DNA of 42,708 nt, taken from the sequence record QB031384.1. One strand, written 5' to 3'. Position numbers and translations under genes: made by a program. This document shows positions 3,254-36,080 of the stretch, piece by piece. Position 1 is the stretch's first letter. Each line of letters opens with the position of its first letter. The notes under the pieces are model-generated. The model was given only the letters and a program-made list of their open reading frames with translations. It was not told the origin of the DNA and ran no database searches. Origin of the DNA: a phage.

Positions 3254-6200
3254 TTAATCTCCAAAGTTATTAATGATTGCACGGGTAGGCATGAACTCCT
3301 GCAAGAGCGGGAGACTACGGGACACGTCTTTAAGGTCTGCTTCTCCTGCTGCTACCTTCTGAATCAGTCCTAAGATGTTCATAGCATATCCAGTAGCGGT
3401 CAGGCTATGACGTGGGGACTGGTCGCTGAAGATATCAGTCACAAAGCTGAAGCCGCCTAGTATACTCATAGCTTTAACAGCTTCTGCGATAATCTTACCT
3501 TCTGATTCCTGCTTACCGTCAGCAGCGAAACGAGCTTGAGTAATAAGGTACATCAAAGGGAACTGATACGCAGCGAGATGGGCTAAGCCAATCCAGCCGT
3601 TATCACGGTATTCACGACGTAGAATCTTGTTAGTACCTGCTACAGCAAAGCTACCGTAACCAACTACTACGCGACCTACTGGACTGAACTGTGCAAAGTG
3701 AGAAGTCTCACCTACACGAATCTGCTGGATAACATGGTCCATTAGACGAGTACCAATAATCTCTAGCTGAAACTGTAAGTCATCTGGCAGTAAAGCATCA
3801 ACATCAGGACTAGCAGCAGCTTGCATACGCTTAGCAAGTTCAGGGTCAAGACCCCAACGCTGTAAACGCTTAGTAGCTTCTGCATCTCCGTTCAGCATGA
3901 GCTTAAGCTCATCCATTACGATACCTGCGTTAACGTTAGTCTGAAGACGATGCACCAGACCCATACCGTTTACGTGACGTGCAGCCTGACCGATGTTCTG
4001 AGTGATGTTAAACCAGCGGGAACTACGGGTAAGGTCTAAGTTATCATCAGCGTAAGAGTTCAACCAACGGAACCGAAGTTCCTTCTGAATGCTACCACGC
4101 AGGATAGAATCAAGACGAGCGGATTGACTAGCGTCTTTAGCGACAGCTGTAGCTTCCTTCCACCACTTTTCTTTCTTCATGCTGCGGAGTACTCGGGTCA
4201 TCCCGAACTCTTTCATAGCAAGCGCAGTATCTGCCAGCTGATACAAACCGGAGTTCTTAAGTACGGTGGCGTTGGCAAGGTTACCAGCAGCGCGGAATAT
4301 CTCCGGAACTTCTGAACCCTGAACAGGTGCGCCTACCATGAAGTCGATAGTATCATCTACATGCTTCTGATAACGGTCTGGGTCGCGTACTGTAGACTTA
4401 GCTGTGTTAATCATACCTTCCAGTGCATTCAAGTCAGTTACACCCGCGTATGCAAATGCTACACGACCTGATACACGGTTAGTATAACCTTGCATCTGCT
4501 TAGCTACGTCAGTATCCAGAATATCCGCCATACGCATAGCCTGGCCATTAACTATATACTCCTTCTGCAAGTCAAAGCGGTTACGAGTACGCAGGTTCTT
4601 AACCCGAGAAGTCTGAGTCGCTTCGCGTGCTACGTTAGTAGTAAGGAAGTTACGAATCTGGTCGTCTGCTACGCCTGCTGCACGCATTGCATCAACGATA
4701 ACTTCGTTGCCTACACCGCCCAGAATACTACGCCATGCCGGACCAGTCTGCTTAGACTTACCATCATAGATGCTTTCGAACATCTCACGAGCTACGCGAC
4801 CAGCAACCTCAGTTGTCATATCTGGGTAGATATCACGCAGGGCTTGACGGAACAGGTCGCGGTAGTCAGAAGCCTGACGCGCGCCAGTGTTAATCTGCTG
4901 ACGAATAGCATCGTAACTGTACGAGCGTGGGAAGTAGTAAGGACTACGCTTAATCTGAGAATCCACCTCAACCAGTCCAGACTTCTGGAGATGGTCATAC
5001 CATTTAGTAGCCCACTCAGAGTCTACATACGCCTTAACTAACGGGGCAATATCCTGAGGAGGGGTAGGAATCTCACGACCTGCTGTCTCCGCTGAGTATG
5101 CTTGGTCAAGGTATTGTGCAAGTTTAGACTCACGCTCACGACGAGCAGCTTTGAACTTGTTACGTTGCAAGAACGCATCCAGTAAACCAATACCATCTGC
5201 ACGCAGGGAATCAATAATGGCCTTCTCAACTACAGAGGCTGCACCATCAAGCTCTAACTGTAGGTTACGCTTATAGTCAGCTACAGAAGGACGACGTGCA
5301 CCTACTGCTGCGCCGTCAGCTACTAGCAGGTCTGCTAGGTCTTTAGAGCCTTCAGCAATGTTATCGTACAGGCTGAAGCTGCGAGCGAACGCCTTCTTAA
5401 AGCTATCTAACTGCTTAACTGCACCGTTAGCCGTATCGGCGAACTCACCATACTCAGATAATGCCTGAGACTTATAACGGGTAACACCACGCTCTTTAGC
5501 AGCTACATCCAGAAGCGCATCATAGGAATCAAGCACAGAGTTCAAGGCATTACCTTCTACCTTAGCACCTAATGCTTTAAGGATAGTTTGAGCAATACGA
5601 CGAATAGCACTAGCACCTTCTACTTCAGTATTACGCAGTAGCTTAACCAGACCTTTATCATCTGCAAGACCTGCAAGTAACTCTTCGTTACTGCTCAGGC
5701 TGTAGCGCATACGCGCATCAAGATTAGGACTAGTAAGAAGCTGCTCACGAATACGAGTAAGGTTAGTGGTAGCTTCCAATGCTTCTGGAGTACCAGACTG
5801 AATAGCGCGTACAGTAGCAGCATGTATAAGCTCATGCACAGCAATTTTAGCAGTATTAGAATCCAGGCCATTGATAGCATCTCCGTAGGTCTTCCAAGTA
5901 CGTGGGCCTTTCTTAGAGGCACGCAGGGTGACCGCATTGTTAACTAGGTTATAACGGCTAGAGATGTTAGTGTCACCTACGAGGTGTACAGGCACATCAT
6001 CTATGATACCGTCCAGTGAACGCAGCAATGCCTTCTGACCCTCATCCAGTACATCGCGTGCTAACAGGTTCTTAGTAACGTCACTTGCGCGTACACTTAC
6101 ACGAGCCTGCTGACCTTTCAGGATACGAATAGGTTTCTTAAGCGGGGTAGATTCTAAGGAATCAATCTTAGTAGTAAAGGCATCCGAGTCTGGAGCTGTA

Positions 6201-7024
6201 CGCTTAGTAGGAGCAGCTTCATCGAACTGCATTTCTGTACGAGTACTGCCACGAGTAGTACCAGTACTTGCATCTACAGCGTTACTAGCTGTGGTATCTG
6301 CTGCATCTTCCGTTGCACCTGCAACAGTACGCTGAACAGCACGGCTTGCATTAACTGCTTTGCGGATATCGAATAACTGGTCTACGCCTGATACTGCAGC
6401 TACTAATGCAGTGATACCTTCGGACTGTCCCAGCTGGTCCTGCGCATAGTACGCTGAACCTACGTCTGCTGCACGGATAGCTGAACGAACTGCTAAGCCT
6501 GCGCGACCTGCTACACCTGCGGCTGCAAACGGAGCTAACAGGGTAGGGGCGTCACCTAGAATAGAACCAGCGATACCAGACACGATGTTAGCGCTAGCAG
6601 TAGTATCACGCTCGCGCTGCTCCAGCATCTGTTCAATGCGGTAGTTATAATCATCCAAACTAACCGAAGTGCGTAAGTAATCAATTTCTTCCTGATTAGG
6701 GGTGTAAATTCTAGTCCGTGCATCTTTCTGGAGCATCTCCGTAGAGTTGAAGTCCAGGTCAGTTGGGAAGTCTGGAGAGAAAGCTTTGCGTAGACCTGCT
6801 GCGATAATACTGTTACCTGCACCAGCTATAAAGGACTGACCTGCAGTGATAGCAGCAGTACGAGCCTGGGCAGTATTAGATGCACGCTCAAGAGCGGAAG
6901 CACCTAAGTCTGTTGCATCACCCCAATTAACTGTAGCCTGAGGTTGTTGCACTTCAATGAGAGTATCTTGTTTAGCAGAATCCTTTATACCGGGACTAGC
7001 ATCTTGATTCAGGAACTGAGCCAT
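3254..7024 (-). CDS. Internal virion protein D-like (large ejection/core protein, T7 gp16 analogue)
   Basis: 1256-aa ORF between the gp15-like gene and the tail fiber. Size and position match T7/phiKMV synteny. No catalytic motif recognised by eye. Confidence 0.6.
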   Translation of the reverse strand: MAQFLNQDASPGIKDSAKQDTLIEVQQPQATVNWGDATDLGASALERASNTAQARTAAITAGQSFIAGAGNSIIAAGLRKAFSPDFPTDLDFNSTEMLQKDARTRIYTPNQEEIDYLRTSVSLDDYNYRIEQMLEQRERDTTASANIVSGIAGSILGDAPTLLAPFAAAGVAGRAGLAVRSAIRAADVGSAYYAQDQLGQSEGITALVAAVSGVDQLFDIRKAVNASRAVQRTVAGATEDAADTTASNAVDASTGTTRGSTRTEMQFDEAAPTKRTAPDSDAFTTKIDSLESTPLKKPIRILKGQQARVSVRASDVTKNLLARDVLDEGQKALLRSLDGIIDDVPVHLVGDTNISSRYNLVNNAVTLRASKKGPRTWKTYGDAINGLDSNTAKIAVHELIHAATVRAIQSGTPEALEATTNLTRIREQLLTSPNLDARMRYSLSSNEELLAGLADDKGLVKLLRNTEVEGASAIRRIAQTILKALGAKVEGNALNSVLDSYDALLDVAAKERGVTRYKSQALSEYGEFADTANGAVKQLDSFKKAFARSFSLYDNIAEGSKDLADLLVADGAAVGARRPSVADYKRNLQLELDGAASVVEKAIIDSLRADGIGLLDAFLQRNKFKAARRERESKLAQYLDQAYSAETAGREIPTPPQDIAPLVKAYVDSEWATKWYDHLQKSGLVEVDSQIKRSPYYFPRSYSYDAIRQQINTGARQASDYRDLFRQALRDIYPDMTTEVAGRVAREMFESIYDGKSKQTGPAWRSILGGVGNEVIVDAMRAAGVADDQIRNFLTTNVAREATQTSRVKNLRTRNRFDLQKEYIVNGQAMRMADILDTDVAKQMQGYTNRVSGRVAFAYAGVTDLNALEGMINTAKSTVRDPDRYQKHVDDTIDFMVGAPVQGSEVPEIFRAAGNLANATVLKNSGLYQLADTALAMKEFGMTRVLRSMKKEKWWKEATAVAKDASQSARLDSILRGSIQKELRFRWLNSYADDNLDLTRSSRWFNITQNIGQAARHVNGMGLVHRLQTNVNAGIVMDELKLMLNGDAEATKRLQRWGLDPELAKRMQAAASPDVDALLPDDLQFQLEIIGTRLMDHVIQQIRVGETSHFAQFSPVGRVVVGYGSFAVAGTNKILRREYRDNGWIGLAHLAAYQFPLMYLITQARFAADGKQESEGKIIAEAVKAMSILGGFSFVTDIFSDQSPRHSLTATGYAMNILGLIQKVAAGEADLKDVSRSLPLLQEFMPTRAIINNFGD

Positions 7025-7105
7025 TTATAAATCCTTAAAGGGTTGTGATAAAGAAGATAATAGAGCAGGGATACTGGAGGTGTATCCCGGCGCTGGAAGG
7101 GTTTT

Positions 7106-7134
7106 ATTATATCATGGATTTCATGATTCGTCAA
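7106..7134 (-). promoter_or_regulatory. Sigma70-like promoter (TTGACG - 17 bp - TGaTATAAT, extended -10) upstream of the gp16-like gene; copy A of an inverted duplicated element
   Basis: Minus-strand reading gives TTGACG (7129-7134), a 17-nt spacer, then TGATATAAT with -10 at 7106-7111. It sits in the 130-bp gap between gp15-like and gp16-like genes. About 40 bp is near-identical to 26624-26680 on the opposite strand. Confidence 0.4.
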
Positions 7135-7154
7135 ACCCTTTCTAAATATTTACA

Positions 7155-9851
7155 TTACTGACCAAGACGGACAGCTTGAACCGCTTGCCAATACTGAATC
7201 TCCAGGTACTGTTTACGCTTAGGTTGGGCTTGCTTATAAGCAGGCTGTTTCTTAAGTGTATCCAGCCCTACTAAAGACTGCGCTTGGAACGGGTCCTGCT
7301 GGTAGCCGTATGTCGCAGAGGAGCCTTGACCTTGTACTGATTTCAAGGTACGAAGAGCATCTGCTACAGGGGCGGAACTGCCGTTACCACCGTGATAGTT
7401 CAAGTCTACCAGAAGCTTCAGCCCAGAAGGGTCCTGAGTAATACCTTGCAGCTGTTTCTTAACCGCAGGGATGTACTGCTTCTCGAGAGAACCTTTCAAT
7501 ACCTCAATACCTTGTTCAGGAGTCAGGGATTCAGGAACTGGTAAGCCAGAGTTATCATGCAGACCAAAGCCTACGCTACCTTTCTTCTTAGTAGCACGGA
7601 AGCCTTCGAACTGAGCAGTAGTAGCTACGATGTCTGAGAAGAGGGCAGGTTGAATCCCAACACTGTTCTTGCCATTAACGTTCAGACTAATAGTACGTCC
7701 ATTATCAGCATCCCAGAATGTAGCAGGGCGAGAACCTACAGCCTTCTGACCAATCTCAATACCACCAGCTAGTGCTTCATCGTACCCAGCCTGAGCTAGC
7801 TGCTGAACCTGCTGCACGTCGATACTTACGTTCTGGTAGATACCGTCAGTAGTAAGGACAGAAGCAGTTAAGTTTTGACCCTGCGCACCAGCAGTACCTG
7901 CCTGCACGATTACACGGGAAACTTTAGAAGGGTCAGCTATGGCATCAACACTAGTTTGAATCTGCTGAGCAAGTGCAGTACGGAACTGTTCGGCATCCCC
8001 ACGATAAGAACCTTGAAGGTCTGCGAGTGTAGTACCAGCGGGAAGATAAACGTGACGCGGCTTACCTGATACTTCAACCTGCAACTGACGGGACTGGATA
8101 CGTCCCTTAAGAAGCGTGTTGATATCCTCCGGGGACTTACCTACCAGAAGTTCAGGGTTGCTACGGTACAACTGTTTATACTCTTCCTGTAATGCTACAC
8201 GTCCCTCCTGACGCTGCTGGTCCGCAGTATCACCAAAGCTAAACCAGTTAGCAGTAGACTCAGCATCAATAGCTGCTTCCGGAGGATTAGCTGGGAGGTT
8301 ATCATAGCGTCCGCTTGCACGGTTACGGGCTAAACGACGGATATCATCCAGAATGATATTACTAGCGTTAGACTGGCCCTGAGCAGCAGCACGTTGAATA
8401 ATACCACGGTACTCTTCAGGTACGTCACCGCTCAGTGCAATCTTATCTAAGTCACCGCCAGAGATGTACTGCTGTACCCAACCTGCGATAGCTGCGTTGT
8501 TCTCTGCACTAACTGTACCGTCCTCTGCGAGAGAGTCCAGCGAGGCTAAGGTGTTAGCCATTAAGCGTGAAGTACGCTGGTTAGCCTTCTGGATAAGTCC
8601 TGCATCTTTAGAGGTCTTACCGTACTGTAGAAGCGTAGCATTACCTACCGGAGTATCCGGGAACTGGTCCAAGATGAATTTCTGCGCTTTCTCTACATCC
8701 CCCTCGAACTGACCGGCAAGTACAGACGTAGGCTGACGATTATTAATCGCTATCTGCAACGCATACTTATCAGCTGCATCATCACGAAGCTTAGTAGCAC
8801 TGTTCCAGATATCAAGCTGAGTACCTGTGCTTAATACACCACTGCGCCCATACTGCTGTACTTGGGAGCGGATATTCTGTAAAGCTACTTCCTGCTGTTC
8901 CGGGGATGCACTACGGAGAGCTTCAAGCTGGTCAGCAATATCAAAGCGGACCTGTGCTTCCATCCGGGAGCCTGCACGCTTAAACTCAGTACGCAGTGCC
9001 TTAACGACATCTACAGAGTTAACACCGAGCTGCTCAGTTGCAATACGTTGAATACGGTCAATGACCAGAGGGTCAGTGGCATTCTGTGCAATAGATACAA
9101 GATAGTCCTGTACACGTGCAAACTTACTACTTTTATCGAGGTGCCCCGCACCTAGAATGGCACTCATACCAGATACTACAGCAGCGTCACCGGCAGGGAT
9201 ATTCCCGCTTTGGATATGGTTAAAGAACTCCTGACCGGAGGCACTTAAGTTCTGGTCTAATGCAGCATCTGCTCGCTGATTAGCAACTTTAGCGCGTCCC
9301 TCTTGGAAGGCGGCATAGTTAGCTGCGCTAGCTTGCTGCACCTGTGTAAGAGTAGCCGCAGCAGCCTGGCGGTCCAGCTGAGGTAGCCACTTGGATACTT
9401 GCTCAGAGAACTTAGCATTACCCTGTTGCTCTTGTAAACGAAACTCCTCATCAGACAAGCCTTGCGCTGCTGCGGAGTTAGCACGCTGAAGAGCGCCTAT
9501 ACGCCAGTCAGCAAGCTCACGACTTACTGCTGCGGAGGTGTAGCCTTGTGTATAAGAATCACGAAGGAATATGTTCTGCTGCTTAACCTTCTCATCTCTA
9601 GTAGCTTCTAAGTCGACAGCACCTTGAGCATCAAGCGCACCCTGTACAGCTGCCTTAGCGCCGTATACCTGGGCACGCTCAGAGAATCCTTCTACTGTTC
9701 CTTGAAGGAACTGACCAATAGCCTGACGCCTAGCTAATGCTGAGTCATCTACTGCTACTGCACCTACCGCCCCCTGTACTGCCTCAGTAGCCTGAAGCTG
9801 AACACCTTGAAGCTGCAAGCCTTGACGTTGTACACTTTGAGTAATAGGCAC
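7155..9851 (-). CDS. Internal virion protein C-like (T7 gp15 analogue)
   Basis: 898-aa ORF, Ala/Gln-rich and predicted helical, placed between gp14-like and gp16-like genes. Call is by synteny. Confidence 0.6.
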   Translation of the reverse strand: MPITQSVQRQGLQLQGVQLQATEAVQGAVGAVAVDDSALARRQAIGQFLQGTVEGFSERAQVYGAKAAVQGALDAQGAVDLEATRDEKVKQQNIFLRDSYTQGYTSAAVSRELADWRIGALQRANSAAAQGLSDEEFRLQEQQGNAKFSEQVSKWLPQLDRQAAAATLTQVQQASAANYAAFQEGRAKVANQRADAALDQNLSASGQEFFNHIQSGNIPAGDAAVVSGMSAILGAGHLDKSSKFARVQDYLVSIAQNATDPLVIDRIQRIATEQLGVNSVDVVKALRTEFKRAGSRMEAQVRFDIADQLEALRSASPEQQEVALQNIRSQVQQYGRSGVLSTGTQLDIWNSATKLRDDAADKYALQIAINNRQPTSVLAGQFEGDVEKAQKFILDQFPDTPVGNATLLQYGKTSKDAGLIQKANQRTSRLMANTLASLDSLAEDGTVSAENNAAIAGWVQQYISGGDLDKIALSGDVPEEYRGIIQRAAAQGQSNASNIILDDIRRLARNRASGRYDNLPANPPEAAIDAESTANWFSFGDTADQQRQEGRVALQEEYKQLYRSNPELLVGKSPEDINTLLKGRIQSRQLQVEVSGKPRHVYLPAGTTLADLQGSYRGDAEQFRTALAQQIQTSVDAIADPSKVSRVIVQAGTAGAQGQNLTASVLTTDGIYQNVSIDVQQVQQLAQAGYDEALAGGIEIGQKAVGSRPATFWDADNGRTISLNVNGKNSVGIQPALFSDIVATTAQFEGFRATKKKGSVGFGLHDNSGLPVPESLTPEQGIEVLKGSLEKQYIPAVKKQLQGITQDPSGLKLLVDLNYHGGNGSSAPVADALRTLKSVQGQGSSATYGYQQDPFQAQSLVGLDTLKKQPAYKQAQPKRKQYLEIQYWQAVQAVRLGQ

Positions 9852-14743: not shown

Positions 14744-15568
14744 TTACAGCCCAGCACGCTTACCAGCAGCGCGACGGTCTAACAGGTCTTGGTAGCGACC
14801 AGCGAAAGCTTGAGACTGCAAGCTGCGGTTACCTACCTCTTTGCGAAGTTTAGAATATTCTTCGCTGAATGCCTTAGCACTAAGAGCACCAGCAGAGCCA
14901 GGTGCGCCTTGAAACTTAGGATTAATAGTCGCCATTACGCCGAGGCTTTGACAAGTCTCGATAACGAACTTAGCAGCCCCTGCGATATCGCCTGAATCGG
15001 CGAGTGCACGTGCAGCCTTACGGATGTGCTCGGGAGCCTTAGCATTAAATACCTGCGTCGCTGCATCCCATTGCTCTTTACCGCCAGCCATTTCATAAGC
15101 CGAATTAACTGCCTTCTGAACCCGACCTACTTGGTCTTCCAGATACGCCTTAGCTAGCATCTCTGCATATGCAGCATGTTCACCGAAACGTTCTTGGATG
15201 AATGCCTTATCAATTAAGTTAGCATCACCATACTCAATAGCCTTACCGATAGCACGGACCATGTCCGAGTCATTCAGTTTAGATACTTGTTTGAGCATAG
15301 CAATACCGGCATCAATTGCTGGATTACCTGTCTCTGCTAATTCAGTCTGAGCTGAAGCAGGAGTCGGAGCCTCTGATTTATTAAGTAGCTTAGACAGCGC
15401 TTCAATATCAAGCGTAGCAGGAGCAGGAGCTACTGCGACCTCAGGCACACCTTGCATGTTTGGTGCCTTAACGTTTGCGCCAGGGCCCGGAATCTTGGGG
15501 CCGTCGACATTCTCAACAACTATAGTTGCTGGAACTTCGCTTGGTACTGCTGAAATATCATCTGACAT
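14744..15568 (-). CDS. Scaffolding protein (T7 gp9-like)
   Basis: 274-aa Ala-rich, acidic, helical-looking ORF between portal and capsid genes. Confidence 0.65.
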   Translation of the reverse strand: MSDDISAVPSEVPATIVVENVDGPKIPGPGANVKAPNMQGVPEVAVAPAPATLDIEALSKLLNKSEAPTPASAQTELAETGNPAIDAGIAMLKQVSKLNDSDMVRAIGKAIEYGDANLIDKAFIQERFGEHAAYAEMLAKAYLEDQVGRVQKAVNSAYEMAGGKEQWDAATQVFNAKAPEHIRKAARALADSGDIAGAAKFVIETCQSLGVMATINPKFQGAPGSAGALSAKAFSEEYSKLRKEVGNRSLQSQAFAGRYQDLLDRRAAGKRAGL

Positions 15569-17924: not shown

Positions 17925-18572
17925 TTAAGCTTCAGGTAAGTGATTGTATTTACCTAAGTAATGCCGTATATACTCGGCCCTTGCAGATAACATATCATCC
18001 GCTTGACCTAGATGTACTCCCGCTACTCGCACATAGAACTTACCTGCCGCGCTATTCCAAAAGAAACCTTTAGTTTGACCAGACTTACGATTCTGTGCAT
18101 TCTTAACTTGAGTAGATGCACGTAGGTTGGTTGGATTATTGTTTAGTGGGTTGTTATCTATGTGGTCGACTACCTCGGGCCAACTGCTATATGTCAGAAA
18201 GTACACCGCCCTACTAGCTGATAAAGTCTTGTTGAAAGCCCTGCCAGAATATGCTGTTCTCTGGCTACTCTGATACTTATGAGCACTAGTAACCTTACCT
18301 GACAGGGCAGGACTGCCTGCCTTAATCTTACTGGCAGGCCCGGTAGTCCCCACTAAAGGCCGTCTCCAGCTAACCCAGCTCTCAGAGGAAGCATCTACTT
18401 GAAGGTACACTGCAATAAGCTCTTCCGTAGATAGCCTGTTAAGCATTTCCTTATACTTAGGCATAGGTGGTCCCCAGTTATCTGGATTATCTAGGTACTC
18501 TTTTGTAGCATACTTCTGAACAGGAGGGTGCACGCACGCCATCCATATTTCCCAATCGGTCATCTTAGTCAT
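17925..18572 (-). CDS. HNH homing endonuclease with AP2-like DNA-binding domain
   Basis: 215-aa ORF. HNH-type motif VDHIDNNPLNNNPTNLR and AP2-like GFFWNSAAGKFYVRV...RAEYI. Free-standing between the RNAP gene and the structural module. Confidence 0.7.
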   Translation of the reverse strand: MTKMTDWEIWMACVHPPVQKYATKEYLDNPDNWGPPMPKYKEMLNRLSTEELIAVYLQVDASSESWVSWRRPLVGTTGPASKIKAGSPALSGKVTSAHKYQSSQRTAYSGRAFNKTLSASRAVYFLTYSSWPEVVDHIDNNPLNNNPTNLRASTQVKNAQNRKSGQTKGFFWNSAAGKFYVRVAGVHLGQADDMLSARAEYIRHYLGKYNHLPEA

Positions 18573-26018: not shown

Positions 26019-26591
26019 TTACATTGCCCAATCAGGACGCTCACCCTTACCGCAGTAAAAGTCAATCAGGTCTAGTAAGCGCGGATAATACTTCAGCGAA
26101 CTCTTACCGTCCATTTCCGCAACCTGGCGCCTACTGAAGCTGCGCCACTCTGCTGCCGTATGCTGCTGACATCCTGCACGCACTATGTCCTTACAGATAC
26201 TAATGAAGTACGTTTCTCCGTATATAATGACAGTCTTGGCGCCGCGCAGGTCAGCGCGGCGCAGGTTAGCGCCGCGCAGGTCAGCGTAGCGCAGGTCAGC
26301 GTCGCGCAGGTCAGTACCGGTCAGGTCAGCGCCGCGCAGGTCAGCGATGCGCAGGTCAGCGTCGCGCAGGTCAGCGCCGCTCAGGTCAGCGCCGCGCAGG
26401 TCAGTACCGGTCAGGTCAGCGCCGCGCAGGTTAGCGTAGCGCAGGTTAGCGCCGCGCAGGTCAGCGTCGCGCAGGTCAGTGCTGCTCAGGTCAGCGTCGC
26501 ACAGGTCAGCGTCGCGCAGGTTAGCGCGGCGCAGGTCAACGCTGTGCAGTCTTCCTAACTTATATATTTCGCAGATTTCTTGATAGTTCAT
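26019..26591 (-). CDS. Pentapeptide-repeat protein 1 (about 21 tandem A(D/N)LxG-type pentapeptides plus 70-aa non-repeat C-terminal domain)
   Basis: 190-aa ORF with an unbroken run of [15 protein letters not shown] pentapeptides after the N-terminal cap [12 protein letters not shown]. Strand chosen because all flanking genes are minus-strand. Confidence 0.8.
26238..26549. repeat. Tandem array of about 21 copies of a 15-bp unit (CGCAGGTCAGCGNCG-like) encoding the pentapeptide repeats
   Basis: Periodicity is visible directly: gcgcaggtcagcg recurs every 15 bp, varying mainly at 2-3 positions per unit. Confidence 0.9.
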
Positions 26592-26623
26592 AGTTAACCT
26601 ATATGTAAAGAATTATTTATTAC

Positions 26624-26652
26624 TGGACAAATCCTGATATTCATGATATAAT
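26624..26652 (+). promoter_or_regulatory. Sigma70-like promoter on the plus strand (TGGACA - 17 bp - TGaTATAAT), antisense to all neighbouring genes; copy B of the inverted duplicated element
   Basis: Plus strand has TGGACA (26624-26629), a 17-nt spacer, then TGATATAAT with -10 at 26647-26652. Sequence is near-identical to the minus-strand element at 7095-7134. Confidence 0.35.
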
Positions 26653-26678
26653 AAAACCCTTCCTACGCAGGGCTACAC

Positions 26679-27182
26679 CTACTTCTCCACAACTTCATAC
26701 TCTCCATGATTAGGATGGAATCCATGTAACCGCTCGACAGCCTTTCTTGCTTTAACAGCAAGGGTAATATCTGTAAACAAGCCCAAGTGCATATAAATGC
26801 CATCTACCTTTATACGCGCACGCCACTTACCAGCATTCTTATCCCAGCCTACGCCGCATATGCCGCTGGTGTTGCTCGAGTGTAGCCTCATATTGCGGCT
26901 GTTAGTGCTTTGATTTACTAACCTTAGATTAATTAACCTATTATCATCTTTAATATGGTTAATATGGTCTATTTGCAAACCTGCCGGAATAGGTCCATTT
27001 ACCATCTCATAAATTATGCGATGTAATTTGTAAGTCTTACCCCTTACCATGACCTGCATGTAACCACGCTTGTTTAAGCAACCAGCTACCTCTCCTACCT
27101 TTGAAGCACTTCTAGGTAACCTAATCTTCCAAATCAAAGCCCCTGTATCTGGGCAGTAGTTGAATATACTATTCCAATCCAT
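26679..27182 (-). CDS. HNH homing endonuclease with AP2-like DNA-binding domain
   Basis: 167-aa ORF with HNH motif LQIDHINHIKDDNRLINLRLVNQSTNSRN and AP2-like GVGWDKNAGKWRARIKVDGIYMHLGLF. Second such gene in the genome. Confidence 0.7.
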   Translation of the reverse strand: MDWNSIFNYCPDTGALIWKIRLPRSASKVGEVAGCLNKRGYMQVMVRGKTYKLHRIIYEMVNGPIPAGLQIDHINHIKDDNRLINLRLVNQSTNSRNMRLHSSNTSGICGVGWDKNAGKWRARIKVDGIYMHLGLFTDITLAVKARKAVERLHGFHPNHGEYEVVEK

Positions 27183-27378
27183 AGTATTCCCCTTCTTCTA
27201 CTACAAGATATTCACAAGGTGCAAAAGTAAACTCCTCATCTTCATCTCCTAAATCAACCTCTCCTGTGTCAGGGAAGAACTCATATACTTCGTGAACACT
27301 GCCTACCGGGAATCTATCCATGTACTCGAACATCTCGCCTACACCATATGCACTGTAGTTAAGAATGCGAACTTTCAT
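27169..27378 (-). CDS. Hypothetical acidic protein (69 aa)
   Basis: First ORF downstream of the promoter-leader cassette at 27490-27638. Strongly acidic (DLGDEDEEF, VVEEGEYYGLE). Confidence 0.45.
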   Translation of the reverse strand: MKVRILNYSAYGVGEMFEYMDRFPVGSVHEVYEFFPDTGEVDLGDEDEEFTFAPCEYLVVEEGEYYGLE

Positions 27379-27489
27379 ATTGAATCCTCTTAAGTCTGCA
27401 ACCTCACCGCGAAGTTGCTTAACTAAGAGACTTCCTTAGCGAGTCTTATTTCTCTTAGACTCTCATCTGCATCGCACTGTATTACCTGT

Positions 27490-27638
27490 GCACGGGAGGA
27501 ACCGCTCAAGCTCGTACTATCTACCCAGAGCTTTCAGGAGGGCACCGGGATTAAAGTCCCCGGTGACTAACAAGCCGCTTTGCTATCTGCATCTCGTCTT
27601 GATGAAATGAATTCTACAGCATTCTAAAACTGTGTCAA
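27490..27638 (-). promoter_or_regulatory. Promoter-leader cassette R1: sigma70-like promoter (TTGACA - 16 bp - TAGAAT) plus conserved structured 5' leader
   Basis: -35 at 27633-27638 and -10 at 27611-27616. Downstream leader contains a hairpin (CACCGGG/CCCGGTG), GCCCTCCTGAA, a second hairpin with loop GGGTAGATA, and GAGCGGTTCCTCCCGT. Homologous to copies at 34406-34528 and 35943-36080. Confidence 0.55.
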
Positions 27639-27650
27639 CACTTATTTTAA

Positions 27651-28838
27651 TTAAATTACCTCTTCCTCTTTAAAGGATTTACCAATACCACATTCGGCGG
27701 GAAACTTAACTTCAGACAGTATGCCAAAGTTAGGCCACAACTGTAGCATCCTATCACGGGCTCCTTCCATAACGTTTTTGATGAGCTTACCCGCCTTACG
27801 GGCCGTCTCTTCGTCAGCACAATCTATGTACAAACAGTCATGGACGGTAACCAGCAAACACCATTTACCCCCCATCCAATTGTCAGCTATACCAGCCCTC
27901 ATAGCCATTCCGGTTGCAATAAGCATAAGCAGGGAACCTGATCCTTGAAACGGATAGTTAGCCATCTCTGTGGGCTTAAAGTCCATTACCTGCTTACCTT
28001 CGCGCCACACCGGCTTCTGACGGAAGCGGTAGCGAGTACCGCAAGGCGTAGTGAAGTAGCCCTCGCGATAGATACGCCAGCTGCCGTCATCTGCTTGTTC
28101 ACGGCGTATAGGCTCCAGCAGCGCAGTACGGTTTACTTCAGCTGCAATGACATCCCTGTACTTAATAGACTCAGGGAATAGTGCCTCCTCGTTAGCTAAG
28201 AACTTCTCAGCGTCGGCTAAGCTAGCACCTGAGGCGAACGCCAGTCCTTTAGCGGATGCTCCATATTGTGCTGCGAAGCTGAAGGTTTTGATGGCTGTTC
28301 GCTTCTTCTTCCATCCTTTATGGTCCGGTGCATCCGGGTTATGGCAAAGCTCGTAGACTTCTTCATAAGGCATACCTTCTTGGAATGCTAGACGATAGCA
28401 GTGCATATCCGTACCGGCTTCAAGCAAGCTCAGTAATTTCTTATCACCAGTGATTACACAGCCCATTACAACCTCCATAGCTGAGTAGTCACACTGTGCA
28501 ATCATACCCTGCTCACCATAGCGGCTACGCAGAATCTGCTTAACCTTAGACTCACGCGGCAGCTGCTGCATGTTCGGGTTAGATGTTGACAGGCGTCCGG
28601 TAGTAGTTGAGCAGTGATTCGACCTGTGGTGAATGATGCCAGAACCATCTGCTGATGTAGGGATGACGTACGGCAGCATGCCCGTCACCTTACGCAGACT
28701 GCCATCCTTATTAGTCTCACGTACTTCATAGAAGCCGAGGTCCTTCTGGCGTGTAGTCATTTCTTTGTATGCTTTGAAGAAGTCTGAAGCTAACTTAGCC
28801 ATCTTGTTCCATCCCAATAAAATAATGTGCAAGGTCAT
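27651..28838 (-). CDS. DNA polymerase, family A: polymerase (fingers/palm) part
   Basis: 395-aa ORF with TGRLSTSNPNMQQLP, motif A-like CDYSAMEV, motif B-like RTAIKTFSFAAQYG and motif C VHD. Overlaps the upstream exonuclease-domain ORF by 44 nt in a different frame. Confidence 0.85.
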   Translation of the reverse strand: MTLHIILLGWNKMAKLASDFFKAYKEMTTRQKDLGFYEVRETNKDGSLRKVTGMLPYVIPTSADGSGIIHHRSNHCSTTTGRLSTSNPNMQQLPRESKVKQILRSRYGEQGMIAQCDYSAMEVVMGCVITGDKKLLSLLEAGTDMHCYRLAFQEGMPYEEVYELCHNPDAPDHKGWKKKRTAIKTFSFAAQYGASAKGLAFASGASLADAEKFLANEEALFPESIKYRDVIAAEVNRTALLEPIRREQADDGSWRIYREGYFTTPCGTRYRFRQKPVWREGKQVMDFKPTEMANYPFQGSGSLLMLIATGMAMRAGIADNWMGGKWCLLVTVHDCLYIDCADEETARKAGKLIKNVMEGARDRMLQLWPNFGILSEVKFPAECGIGKSFKEEEVI

Positions 28839-29940
28839 TCATTGCGTCCGTTCCTGTGCTGTACACAGGGCTACCATCCGCTAATGTTTGAGCACCTTTG
28901 TATTCACCGCGGTCTCCGTACTTCTCACGTAGAGACTGAGGTAGGTCCTGAATATTAACCAGCCCGTCGAAGCGGTACAGGCGTTCACCCCACTTCATAG
29001 CTTGCTCGTCAGTGTCTACTTTTATGAACTTAGGCATACCCTTATTACGCCCAGACTTATACACCCCGTCCTGTACTTCCTTCTTAATGTATTTAGGTGG
29101 GTCATAAGGAACCTTGCACTTGTACTTAACCATGCCACCATACACTAAAGCGGACATATGATAACCGCTATTCCAGTTAAACTCGAAGCCCTCTGGCAAT
29201 TCTGGCAAGAATGTCTGAAGTAACTCCCGCAGATTCCGAATAGCGTCCTCCTGCTCCTTCTGGTTTACGCGTGCTGTAGGCATATCAACGTACACGCCAT
29301 TGAACTCACAGTATGCCAGAGCTGCGACTGCCTCCATCCTTTCCCAGACCATAGGCATCTGTCCACGTTCCGCAAATACTGCGCATTGCCCGTAGAAGCA
29401 CAGCGCTGTGTTGACTATGTCACCGTTAGGCCCTGTTAAGTATTCATGTAGTAGCATAGGGTCAATGTCTGCTGTCAGAACCCCTTGCTGCCATAGTAGC
29501 TTAACGCCGTCGACTTTGTGTGACCCGCCATACTTAGGGGCAGTCTCATCTAGTGACGGGTAAAGATTCTGGAAGTCGCTGGCAATGTACTCGCCCTGCA
29601 TAGTATCAAAGACTCGACCTCCTCGTCTAAGGAACGACTCGAACTGCTCACGGGCAAAGGTCAGCGCCCAGCTAATCTCGTACGCTGCGTTGTGCGCTAC
29701 GATTAACCACGTATCATCCTGAATAGGTAGCCACTGCTTAGGGTCAGCTGCTAAGAAATCAGTTCGGGATTCATAGCGTACACTCTGCACCTCGCTGCAC
29801 TGTACAGTCCCATCCGGCATAGTCCTATCAATGCGGAAGCCTGATTCTACGATGTAGTTATCAGGGCAGTACGGAGTTGCGACCCCGCCGTAGTACGGAT
29901 GATTTTGAGTTTCAATATCCCAAATTAGAATGCTACTCAT
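28795..29940 (-). CDS. DNA polymerase, family A: N-terminal 3'-5' exonuclease part (separate frame from the polymerase part)
   Basis: Exo I motif WDIET near the N-terminus. The ORF track starts it at a TTG (29946); the ATG at 29940 overlaps the upstream small ORF's stop as ATGA. Ends 44 nt inside the polymerase-domain ORF. Confidence 0.8.
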   Translation of the reverse strand: MSSILIWDIETQNHPYYGGVATPYCPDNYIVESGFRIDRTMPDGTVQCSEVQSVRYESRTDFLAADPKQWLPIQDDTWLIVAHNAAYEISWALTFAREQFESFLRRGGRVFDTMQGEYIASDFQNLYPSLDETAPKYGGSHKVDGVKLLWQQGVLTADIDPMLLHEYLTGPNGDIVNTALCFYGQCAVFAERGQMPMVWERMEAVAALAYCEFNGVYVDMPTARVNQKEQEDAIRNLRELLQTFLPELPEGFEFNWNSGYHMSALVYGGMVKYKCKVPYDPPKYIKKEVQDGVYKSGRNKGMPKFIKVDTDEQAMKWGERLYRFDGLVNIQDLPQSLREKYGDRGEYKGAQTLADGSPVYSTGTDAMNDLAHYFIGMEQDG

Positions 29941-30089
29941 TTCCAATTACTCCGACGTGATTTATTAATGGCTGCCCGTACAATCATCTCGCTACTGTCC
30001 AGCGTGTAGCGCCTAACCTGCTTACGATTGTTAGCAATTGCTCTGATGACTTCGTAGTCTGCCTCAGTAATATCACTTTGCTTTAGCAT
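29937..30089 (-). CDS. Small basic ORF (50 aa), not in ORF track
   Basis: ATG at 30089-30087 preceded by GGTGAGGTG; stop overlaps the DNA polymerase ATG. Translation MLKQSDITEADYEVIRAIANNRKQVRRYTLDSSEMIVRAAINKSRRSNWK. Confidence 0.35.
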   Translation of the reverse strand: MLKQSDITEADYEVIRAIANNRKQVRRYTLDSSEMIVRAAINKSRRSNWK

Positions 30090-32813: not shown

Positions 32814-33350
32814 TTAGATACTAACCCAATCAGCGACGCGCAGGTCAGCGTCGCGCAGGTCAGTGCCGGTCAGGTCAGCGCCGCGCAGGTTAGCGCCGCG
32901 CAGGTTAGCGCCAATCAGGTTAGCGTCGCGCAGGTTAGCGCCGCTCAGGTCAGTGCCGCGCAGGTTAGCGCCGCGCAGGTTAGCGCCGTGCAGGTCAGCG
33001 CTGCGCAGGTCAGCGCCGCTCAGGTCAGCGCCGCTCAGGTCAGCGATGTTCAGGTCAGCGTAGCGCAGGTCAGCGCCGCGCAGGTCAGCGCCGCTCAGGT
33101 CAGCGCCGCGCAGGTTAGCGCCAATCAGGTTAGCGTCGCGCAGCTTAGCGTCGCTCAGGTCAGCGACGCGCAGGTCAGCGTCGCTCAGGTCAGCGTAGCG
33201 CAGGTCAGCGCCGCTCAGGTCAGCGCCGCGCAGGTCAGCGTCGAGCAGGTTAGCGCGGCGCAGGTCAGCGCCGCACAGGTCAGCGCCGCACAGGTCAGCG
33301 CCTTCCAAGGATTCTAACTTGTATTTATTACAGATATTGTCATAAGTCAT
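32814..33350 (-). CDS. Pentapeptide-repeat protein 2 (about 32 tandem pentapeptides; paralogue of 26019-26591)
   Basis: Unbroken A(D/N)L(R/S/C)G-type run that ends at the stop codon. Preferred start is the internal ATG at 33350 (GAGGT SD 8 nt upstream; cap MTYDNICNKYKL matches [12 protein letters not shown] of protein 1). The ORF track extends it to 33401. Confidence 0.8.
   Translation of the reverse strand: MTYDNICNKYKLESLEGADLCGADLCGADLRRANLLDADLRGADLSGADLRYADLSDADLRVADLSDAKLRDANLIGANLRGADLSGADLRGADLRYADLNIADLSGADLSGADLRSADLHGANLRGANLRGTDLSGANLRDANLIGANLRGANLRGADLTGTDLRDADLRVADWVSI
32827..33302. repeat. Tandem array of about 32 copies of the same 15-bp unit (CGCAGGTCAGCGNCG-like)
   Basis: Same 15-bp periodicity and unit sequence as the array at 26238-26549, on the same strand. 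Confidence 0.9.
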
Positions 33351-33360
33351 ATTAGTAACC

Positions 33361-33597
33361 TCAGTTAATTTTAATATTAAAACGTGCACAATACCCTTCA
33401 AGGGTCATCCCTACTTTAGCTGCTTTAAGACTGTAAGCTAACTTAAGAGCTTCCTTAGCGTCATGCTCACGAGCCAGCTTCTCAATCGTTACTTCATCAT
33501 TACGCATCAGAATCATTTCGGGGTTCCGGTTAATCATTTCTGCATCTCCAGTTTGAAAAGGGCCATTGCAGCGTTCCAGGCGAAACGCGGGTTGCAT
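33361..33597 (-). CDS. Hypothetical protein (78 aa)
   Basis: ORF-track ORF in the early/middle region. No motif recognised. Confidence 0.45.
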   Translation of the reverse strand: MQPAFRLERCNGPFQTGDAEMINRNPEMILMRNDEVTIEKLAREHDAKEALKLAYSLKAAKVGMTLEGYCARFNIKIN

Positions 33598-34312: not shown

Positions 34313-34405
34313 CTTAACTCCTTAGTGGTTTTATTAAAGCCCTCCGCAGAAGGCTTTGTAAAACTACTTTAGTTTCTTTCATCTCAGACCCACTGAATTA
34401 TCCGT

Positions 34406-34528
34406 GGACGGGAGGAACCGCTCGAGCCTGTTCTATCTACCCTAGGCTCTCAGAAGGGCAATCACTTAGCGTTGTTGATTAACGTCCTGCTATGAATCCA
34501 ACTATACTCCTATTTTATTTTGTGTCAA
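34406..34528 (-). promoter_or_regulatory. Promoter-leader cassette R2: sigma70-like promoter (TTGACA - 16 bp - TATAGT) plus conserved structured leader
   Basis: -35 at 34523-34528 and -10 at 34501-34506. Leader has a hairpin (AATCA/TGATT), GCCCTTCTGA, a GAGCC/GGCTC stem around GGGTAGATA, and GAGCGGTTCCTCCCGT. Confidence 0.55.
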
Positions 34529-35882: not shown

Positions 35883-35942
35883 CTTAGCGAAGCTCTTGTC
35901 TCTTCAATCTAGTGAGCTTCTCATCTATTCCCTCTGTATAAC

Positions 35943-36080
35943 CCGAGGACGCTAGGTAACGCTCAGAACCTGTTTATCTACCCCGATTCTTCAGGAGGGC
36001 AGCGGCTTTATGTTATCCGCTAACGTCTTGCTTATGTCTTGCTATGTGATGAAGTATACGCTTCAAAACAGGTAAGTCAA
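35943..36080 (-). promoter_or_regulatory. Promoter-leader cassette R3: sigma70-like promoter (TTGACT - 16 bp - TATACT) plus conserved structured leader
   Basis: -35 at 36075-36080 and -10 at 36053-36058. Leader has a hairpin (AGCGG/CCGCT), GCCCTCCTGAA, an AGAAUC/GGUUCU stem (one G-U pair) around GGGTAGATA, and a diverged GAGCG...CCUC segment. Confidence 0.55.

Follow-up and report, generated by a model that had tools for sequence, protein, structure and literature searches.

A duplicated and inverted pair of predicted host sigma70 promoters in a KP34-like coliphage, one of them antisense to all genes

The locus considered here raises the question of why a phage with all of its substantial open reading frames (ORFs) on the minus strand, according to an ORF listing of the whole window (the entire stretch of 42,708 nt that was analysed), should carry a strong promoter-like element on the plus strand, close to the end of an HNH endonuclease gene. 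An earlier note on this DNA had suggested that the element might produce an antisense RNA limiting the endonuclease, might be a relic carried in with the mobile HNH gene, or might be a duplicated terminator or origin-like element. The pacing and insulation of the host-promoter early phase are poorly known in phages of the phiKMV/KP34 type, and a conserved, backward-pointing, near-consensus host promoter in the midst of the DNA-metabolism genes represents a concrete and testable control point, as does its sense-oriented twin in the late region.

The phage and its inverted promoter pair

The phage is a Slopekvirinae coliphage of the KP34/phiKMV-like (T7-like) kind. Its nearest database record is Escherichia phage vB_EcoP_P64441 (Autographivirales, Slopekvirinae; P64441 below), with 96-99.9% identity over the regions tested, and its gene order, running from helicase/DNA polymerase through small genes, phosphoesterase, exonuclease and RNA polymerase to the structural genes, is of the KP34/phiKMV type. 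The window is a circular permutation in which, in gene direction, the early region begins near 36.2 kb. DNA polymerase is encoded by two overlapping ORFs of 395 and 383 amino acids (27651-28838 and 28795-29946, minus strand); since the same annotation is found in P64441, in phage PAS7 and in Logan contigs, the division is probably real and typical of the clade rather than due to faulty sequencing.

The longest inverted repeat of the window, identified using a repeat finder, is formed by two segments designated hereafter as copy A and copy B (Table 1), which are 77% complementary over 78 nt. An exact 22-nt core, GGAAGGGTTTTATTATATCATG, is common to both copies, at 7095-7116 (plus strand) and 26642-26663 (minus strand). 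A search for this core allowing up to three mismatches returned two matches only in the window, compared with none in 100 shuffles. The repeat finder and the core search thus confirmed that the element is nearly identical to the reverse complement of 7095-7134, including the run of 22 nt described previously.

Copy B is composed of an AT-rich upstream stretch, a -35 hexamer, a 17-bp spacer, TG, a -10 hexamer and about 28 nt of conserved initial transcribed sequence. The promoter scan scored it as TGGACA-17-TATAAT, with 11 of 12 hexamer positions matching and an extended -10 in addition; judging from this spacing, transcription would be expected to start at about 26656-26660. The spacing of 17 bp given in the earlier note was correct, its notation of TGGACA, 17 bp and an extended -10 was not, as the 17 bp already include the TGA (14 nt plus TGA). 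That note had also overlooked that copy A constitutes this same promoter in gene orientation. Its minus-strand sequence is TTGACG (7134..7129), 17 bp, TG and TATAAT (7111..7106); copy A is situated in a 130-nt gap between the internal-virion-protein genes 7155..9851 and 3254..7024, and as a predicted promoter it would fire with the genes, ahead of the large internal-virion-protein gene.

The window contains two promoters with at least 11 of 12 hexamer matches plus TG. In 300 first-order Markov resamples the mean was 0.07, and two or more occurred in 0.7%. At a threshold of at least 10 of 12, copy B was the sole promoter on the antisense strand, not only in the window but, at the same position, also in PAS7 and ECO104 4-5-2. 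Both copies fit the sigma70 extended -10 class (TATAAT preceded by TG, with a near-TTGACA -35 at 17 bp), and their prediction as strong host sigma70 (E. coli-type) promoters is well supported by the comparative evidence. The earlier description of copy B as a strong, extended -10 promoter-like element on the plus strand, directed against all of its neighbours, therefore holds as regards sequence features and selected determinants. Rfam 15 gave no match at gathering thresholds over the whole window and, around either copy at permissive E-values, chance-level matches only (E at least 0.88), and a literature search retrieved no relevant transcriptome for Slopekvirinae coliphages or PAS7. The idea that the element was borrowed from the host was rejected, as blastn found no match in 5,426 complete E. 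coli genomes.

Table 1. Coordinates of copy A, copy B and associated features in the window.
Feature	Position	Strand	Evidence or remark
Copy B promoter module	26603..26680	+	Antisense to all genes; inverted repeat, sequence, orthologue alignment
Copy B -35 hexamer, TGGACA	26624..26629	+	
Copy B extended -10, TGaTATAAT	26644..26652	+	TG 26644-26645, TATAAT 26647-26652
Weak sense-strand hairpin, AGCCCU-GCGUAGGA-AGGGUU then UUAUUAUAU	26645..26674	-	Terminator scan, folding
HNH endonuclease gene, 167 aa	26679..27182	-	PHROG/Pfam HNH matches; comparison with P64441
Small acidic gene (69 aa in this phage; 62 aa in relatives)	27169..27378	-	Follows DNA polymerase gene; predicted conserved target of the copy B transcript
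Sense sigma70-like promoter, TTGACA-16-TAGAAT	27611..27638	-	Predicted to drive the small gene; faces copy B
Copy A	7078..7155	-	Sense (gene) orientation; repeat finder, promoter scan, orthologue alignment
Hairpin GGGAUAC-ACCUCCA-GUAUCCC	7068..7088	-	Just downstream of copy A start site
Single-subunit RNA polymerase gene, 816 aa	18582..21032		

Conservation of the element and its independence of the HNH gene

Selection on copy B was assessed by comparing eight distinct orthologues, from phages with small proteins 57-94% identical to that of this phage. The 17-bp spacing, the TG and the TATAAT were unchanged in 8/8, and the TG and TATAAT were likewise invariant in all five copy A orthologues. 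The -35 hexamer of copy B conformed to T[G/T][G/T]ACA, varying only at positions 2 and 3; it was a perfect TTGACA in four of the eight orthologues, with TGTACA and TTTACA as further versions. Variable positions amounted to 12 of the other 15 in the spacer and 2 of 14 in the core (Fisher p = 0.0007, for sites that are not phylogenetically independent). As judged by this alignment, it is the promoter determinants of copy B that are under selection, rather than the whole sequence, and copy B is a clean natural case of fixed promoter determinants with a drifting spacer. The 20 nt upstream of its -35 were AT-rich in every orthologue, a stretch that resembles an UP element and may act as one.

Relative to PAS7, identity was about 93-97% in the promoter part of copy A, 81% in the copy B gap and 72-78% in the coding flanks (73-78% for the genes on either side of copy A), so that both non-coding modules are better conserved than their coding surroundings. 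Both copies were present in 6/6 complete genomes carrying the element; KP34 has neither copy A nor copy B. The two copies exchange sequence: in IMGVR_3300010266 copy B has a transcribed part of copy A type, and in this phage its 3' spacer matches copy A. About 17 nt following the -10 (AAAACCCTTCC), and then CGC-GGG-TACAC, are nearly invariant in both copies. This exceeds the needs of a promoter, indicating that something else is constrained too, be it the RNA 5' end, a protein site or a sense-strand hairpin. With respect to the genes the two copies face opposite ways, and the constraint therefore goes with the direction of the promoter itself; its source is more probably the 5' end of the transcript, or a site in the DNA, than the genes on either side. 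A scan of metagenomes for TATAATAAARCCCTTCC returned mostly chance matches, with one further orthologue (L085) among the matches listed.

The relation between copy B and the HNH gene became apparent from comparison with P64441. In that phage there is no HNH gene at the site; its 62-aa small gene codes for a C-terminus ...FAPSEYEVVEK, and immediately beyond the stop codon comes the element, as in this phage. In the phage studied here, the 3' end of the small gene has received the HNH ORF as an in-frame, lineage-specific insertion, and the end of this ORF lies 27 nt downstream of the copy B -10 hexamer. The HNH ORF took over the original last codons of the small gene (...HGEYEVVEK and stop), and the EY-VVE segment is thus duplicated at the junction. 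The small protein, predicted to form an SH3-like beta-barrel, has acquired a new tail, CEYLVVEEGEYYGLE, with the terminus ...FAPCEYLVVEEGEYYGLE before its stop codon, and the start of the HNH gene overlaps the end of the small gene by 14 nt.

The element occurs without an adjacent HNH gene in P64441, ECO104 4-5-2, PAS7 and the genomes or contigs L006, L007, L145, L146 and L147; relatives that have it after the small gene with no HNH gene next to it include two IMG/VR contigs and three Logan contigs. An HNH gene encoding 167 aa is found just after the DNA polymerase gene in PAS7 (L003 3649-4152), L145 (2125-2628) and L146 (1945-2448). By this comparison of genomes copy B is independent of the HNH gene, which moves while the element stays. 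Whether the element travels with HNH genes in related phages had been put forward as a check, and no co-occurrence was seen across genomes; the notion of a relic carried in with the mobile HNH gene is contradicted by relatives which have the identical element at this site but lack an HNH gene next to it. For the same reason, limiting HNH expression cannot be the conserved function of copy B, as had been proposed for its antisense RNA. An antisense effect on the HNH gene would at most be a side effect in this phage, with the transcript crossing the whole of that gene. The comparison thus corrects a tempting assignment of the element to the neighbouring homing endonuclease. As a separate observation, HNH genes of equal size, compared by length only, occupy different sites within a few hundred bp across the clade.

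The predicted antisense transcript and its proposed role

Transcription from copy B is predicted to start about 20 nt past the small-gene stop codon (that of the HNH gene in this phage) and to proceed into the gene. The transcript contains no ORF that begins close to its predicted 5' end, and the first plus-strand ORF (32 aa, GTG start) lies inside the HNH insert and is missing in relatives. The first 100 nt of the transcript contain 32-34% C and 12-15% G, and the predicted hairpin at its 5' end is weak (-2.6 to -7.9 kcal/mol). The terminator scan detected no plus-strand terminator-like site between 26660 and 27650, and no stable conserved hairpin with a U-run was seen downstream of copy B when the sequences were read by eye. 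A defined 3' end produced by an intrinsic terminator, as in RNAs of the OOP/sar type, was thus not recognised for the copy B RNA. Based on the C-rich, G-poor composition, which resembles that of a Rho loading site, and the lack of a recognisable intrinsic terminator, the RNA would probably be ended by Rho. A convergent sense promoter upstream of the small gene was present in 3/3 genomes scanned, with tandem promoters in PAS7 and ECO104. About 940 nt separate the convergent promoters in this phage, where they enclose the HNH gene as well; in relatives lacking that gene the distance is about 440 nt and only the 62-aa gene lies in between.

We consider it somewhat better than an even chance (probability about 0.55) that copy B is a functional host sigma70 promoter making a non-coding antisense RNA, with a role in cis-antisense control and transcriptional interference. 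These are the most likely modes of action because copy B faces the strong sense promoter at 27638. Transcription of copy B, the end point of the RNA and the effects of the RNA or of colliding polymerases are what we infer from sequence and position. Host sigma70 RNA polymerase would start at copy B near the predicted site, against the genes, and would produce an RNA fully complementary to the small-gene mRNA, in this phage reading first across the inserted HNH gene. Whether bound at copy B or launched from it, polymerase would lower small-gene expression and also the read-through of host polymerase into the middle genes, that is, those for the pentapeptide-repeat protein and the phosphoesterase and onward to the phage RNA polymerase gene; a weak sense-strand terminator on the same bases would assist in damping this read-through. 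In phages of the phiKMV/KP34 type the RNA polymerase gene is located downstream of the DNA-metabolism genes (PMC6834552), and the phiKMV-like phage LUZ19 relies on host-type promoters for its early transcription (PMC10914365). Active host polymerase would therefore have access to a promoter of host type that lies among the DNA-metabolism genes, and a phage-encoded inhibitor of that polymerase, if present, would restrict copy B activity to early and middle times.

A further-reaching proposal, which we regard as doubtful, is that the inverted, co-evolving promoter pair is a dedicated control device of the clade. In one form copy B would be a collision/antisense 'timer' that may set the speed at which host RNA polymerase reaches the phage RNA polymerase gene; in the other, the pair would constitute two host-polymerase-primed origins, both modules possibly firing outward. 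The conserved 30-nt transcribed leader would be a functional RNA or DNA part in either form. The class of element itself, a promoter plus antisense RNA, is unremarkable on present evidence.

Several other explanations were weighed against the antisense promoter. The conserved function might lie on the sense strand, in a 3' UTR of the small gene with an intrinsic terminator, the promoter-like appearance being a by-product of a T-rich tract; this seems unlikely to us. The terminator scan does flag AGCCCT-GCGTAGGA-AGGGTT plus TTATTATATC as terminator-like (a 6-pair stem with three G-C pairs and an 8-nt loop), the U-tract being the complement of TATAATAAAA, the -10 hexamer plus AAAA. The predicted folding energy is -7.5 to -9.9 kcal/mol in four orthologues (-7.5 in this phage), a single change in PAS7 (A to G) converts a G-U pair to G-C, and a terminator would account for the invariance of GGAAGGG and TTTTATTATA. 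The hairpin is marginal, however, reaching only -4.6 kcal/mol in IMGVR_3300010266, whose promoter is a perfect consensus, and a sense terminator leaves the conserved -35, the invariant TG and the fixed 17-bp spacing unexplained. Nor does it explain the conservation (at least 93%) of copy A, where the same strand is antisense. It is possible that the hairpin is a leaky terminator following the small gene or the HNH gene, and the duplicated terminator of the earlier note is weakly supported, in that a marginal sense hairpin and its U-tract overlap the copy B -10. The stable hairpin at copy A is 14 nt away from a U-run and hence no terminator.

We think it quite improbable that the two inverted modules are transcription-activated replication origins firing toward the genome ends, at which host-polymerase transcripts would prime replication or open the DNA as T7 RNA polymerase promoters do at the primary origin of T7. 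The joint occurrence of two oppositely oriented copies in 6/6 complete genomes carrying them would fit origins, as would the AT-rich stretch adjoining each copy, the conservation of the initial transcribed sequence beyond promoter needs and the position of copy B just after the DNA polymerase gene, the replication genes being upstream of the phage polymerase gene in this type of phage (PMC6834552). A C-rich transcript is nevertheless unfavourable for stable R-loops, KP34-like relatives replicate without either copy, and the GC skew, which is monotonic as a result of the one-strand gene layout, is uninformative. That the invariant block is instead a site for a factor other than sigma70, either a promoter of the phage single-subunit polymerase or an operator of a regulator, has in our view a very low probability. 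It would be consistent with the near-invariant contiguous block TGnTATAATAAA(A/G)CCCTTCC, which at about 20 nt has the size of a single-subunit polymerase promoter, with the fully conserved, perfect 6-5-6 palindrome in the copy A spacer, and with the antisense phage-specific promoter of LUZ19 (PMC10914365). Yet the palindrome is missing in most copy B orthologues, a phage-polymerase promoter would need no conserved -35 at 17 bp, and the element is unlike the experimentally defined KP34 promoter, T(A/G)ATGTTACAGGAGTA (PMC6834552). The sole match to the KP34 motif in the window (15545-15560, three mismatches) is at chance level, and no motif was common to the element and the region after the RNA polymerase gene. 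Directly after the RNA polymerase gene of PAS7 there is a KP34-like motif, ATACAGGGGTA, suggesting that the clade keeps KP34-type promoters; an analysis of repeated 13-mers did not define the clade's own phage promoters, and this motif was the only candidate to emerge. Finally, the element as a passenger of the mobile HNH gene or as a chance match is hardly credible and is refuted by the comparison of genomes: its distance of 27 nt from the HNH stop codon in this phage fits a passenger, but at least seven relatives have it at the same site without an adjacent HNH gene, three have the HNH gene elsewhere, and no exact 22-nt repeat is expected by chance.

Comparison with known systems and observations elsewhere in the genome

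The antisense promoter reading of copy B can be compared with several known systems. The OOP RNA of phage lambda, made from Po, is a cis-antisense RNA to the 3' end of cII, with a defined length of 77 nt and its own intrinsic terminator, in a temperate phage. Copy B is similar in being a predicted host sigma70 promoter just past a stop codon that points back and would give a non-coding RNA complementary to the 3' end of an mRNA; it differs in that no terminator was found, in belonging to a lytic T7-like phage and in having a second, sense-oriented copy 19 kb away. In P22, the short sar RNA arises from the convergent promoters Pant/Psar and targets the ribosome-binding site of ant. The arrangement of a small gene region between strong convergent host-type promoters, with the prospect of antisense RNA and promoter interference, is shared with Pant/Psar, whereas the antisense start is at the 3' end of the target gene here. 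Dunn and Studier reportedly described, in 1983, minor E. coli promoters inside T7 (B, C, E and the leftward A0/D), for which we know of no established role. Host-type promoters within the middle and late regions, one of them leftward, are common to both phages; unlike the T7 promoters, those described here show selection on their determinants by comparison and form two paralogous copies that include about 30 nt of transcribed sequence.

For the T7-like Pseudomonas phages LUZ19 and LUZ100, antisense RNAs without an assigned role have been reported, and their start sites were mapped (PMC10914365, PMC10134795). A block to unwanted read-through has been proposed; in the LUZ19 study the hypothesis was that elongation into the early genes is prevented by antisense transcription that starts at promoter P001 (PMC10914365). 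Like this phage, LUZ19 and LUZ100 belong to the Autographivirales and have all genes on one strand and yet an antisense promoter (mapped there, predicted here); unlike theirs, the element here is of the host sigma70 type, lies in the DNA-metabolism region and is duplicated. The phage-polymerase promoters of KP34 (PMC6834552) are also few, repeated and well conserved in a Slopekvirinae genome, with one in the structural region. Their sequence is unrelated to that of the element, and the structural-region promoter of KP34 is inside gene 48 and not in the gap between genes 47 and 48.

With regard to the surroundings of copy A, the hairpin downstream of its start site reads GGGGUAC...GUACCCC in PAS7 and ECO104, a compensatory change. 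KP34 and eight KP34-like contigs have a different hairpin at this position and no promoter; with these phages as reference, the copy A promoter amounts to about 85 nt inserted between stop codon and hairpin. The possibility that copy A yields a discrete small RNA was considered and rejected, since the U-tract after the hairpin is poor and differs among relatives, making a terminator unconvincing. The copy A spacer (7113-7129, minus strand) contains the palindrome ATCATG-AAATC-CATGAT, kept in all copy A orthologues, which could be an operator for some regulator; the corresponding palindrome in copy B of this phage, ATCCTG-ATATT-CATGAT, is imperfect. The contig L153 (IMGVR_UViG_3300010266_000002) carries about 80 nt of additional inserted sequence, located after the copy A hairpin and before the downstream gene starts, with an inverted repeat of its own (gtcaggtagtaaggtcag ... 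cctgactc), which is missing in other phages.

Pentapeptide-repeat proteins are encoded at 26019-26591 and 32814-33401 (minus strand) by DNA that repeats with a period of 15 nt (44 register copies). The PAS7 annotation places a 'modular polyketide synthase' on the opposite strand of the orthologous region, probably a mis-annotation, and ECO104, L006, L145 and L147 have no pentapeptide-repeat gene after copy B. A 215-aa ORF at 17925-18572 (minus strand) directly follows the RNA polymerase gene, where PAS7 has a gap of 59 nt only; its sequence (...DNNPLNNNPTNLR...) is HNH-like in appearance, it is probably another mobile insertion, and its site corresponds to that of the main phage promoter of KP34. 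Five UNVERIFIED_ORG records, four of them named 'Listeria phage LM ...' (OR847472, OR849530, OR847408 and OR848779) and one 'Salmonella phage S.Kent 1-2-1' (OR850875), have the same match coordinates and identity as Escherichia phage ECO104 4-5-2, and their host labels are probably unreliable, for example as a result of carry-over between samples.

An element of 85 nt occurs in three copies on the minus strand (27460-27544, 34376-34460 and 35917-36001), and PAS7 has two. Each copy is preceded, at a distance of about 65-95 nt, by a strong sense sigma70-like promoter (27638, 34528 and 36080). Rfam gave no match to this element. Among the paralogues, compensatory changes affect 6/6 pairs of the first stem (AGAATC/GGTTCT, GAGCCT/AGGCTC, AAGCTC/GAGCTT, ATCTTC/GAAGAT and AGTCTC/GAGACT) around a conserved loop, GGGTAGATA, and are seen in a second hairpin as well. 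The appearance of the element is that of a structured leader RNA carried by host-polymerase transcripts, for which a put-like role in antitermination would be speculation. The 85-nt element may be more novel than the copy B promoter.
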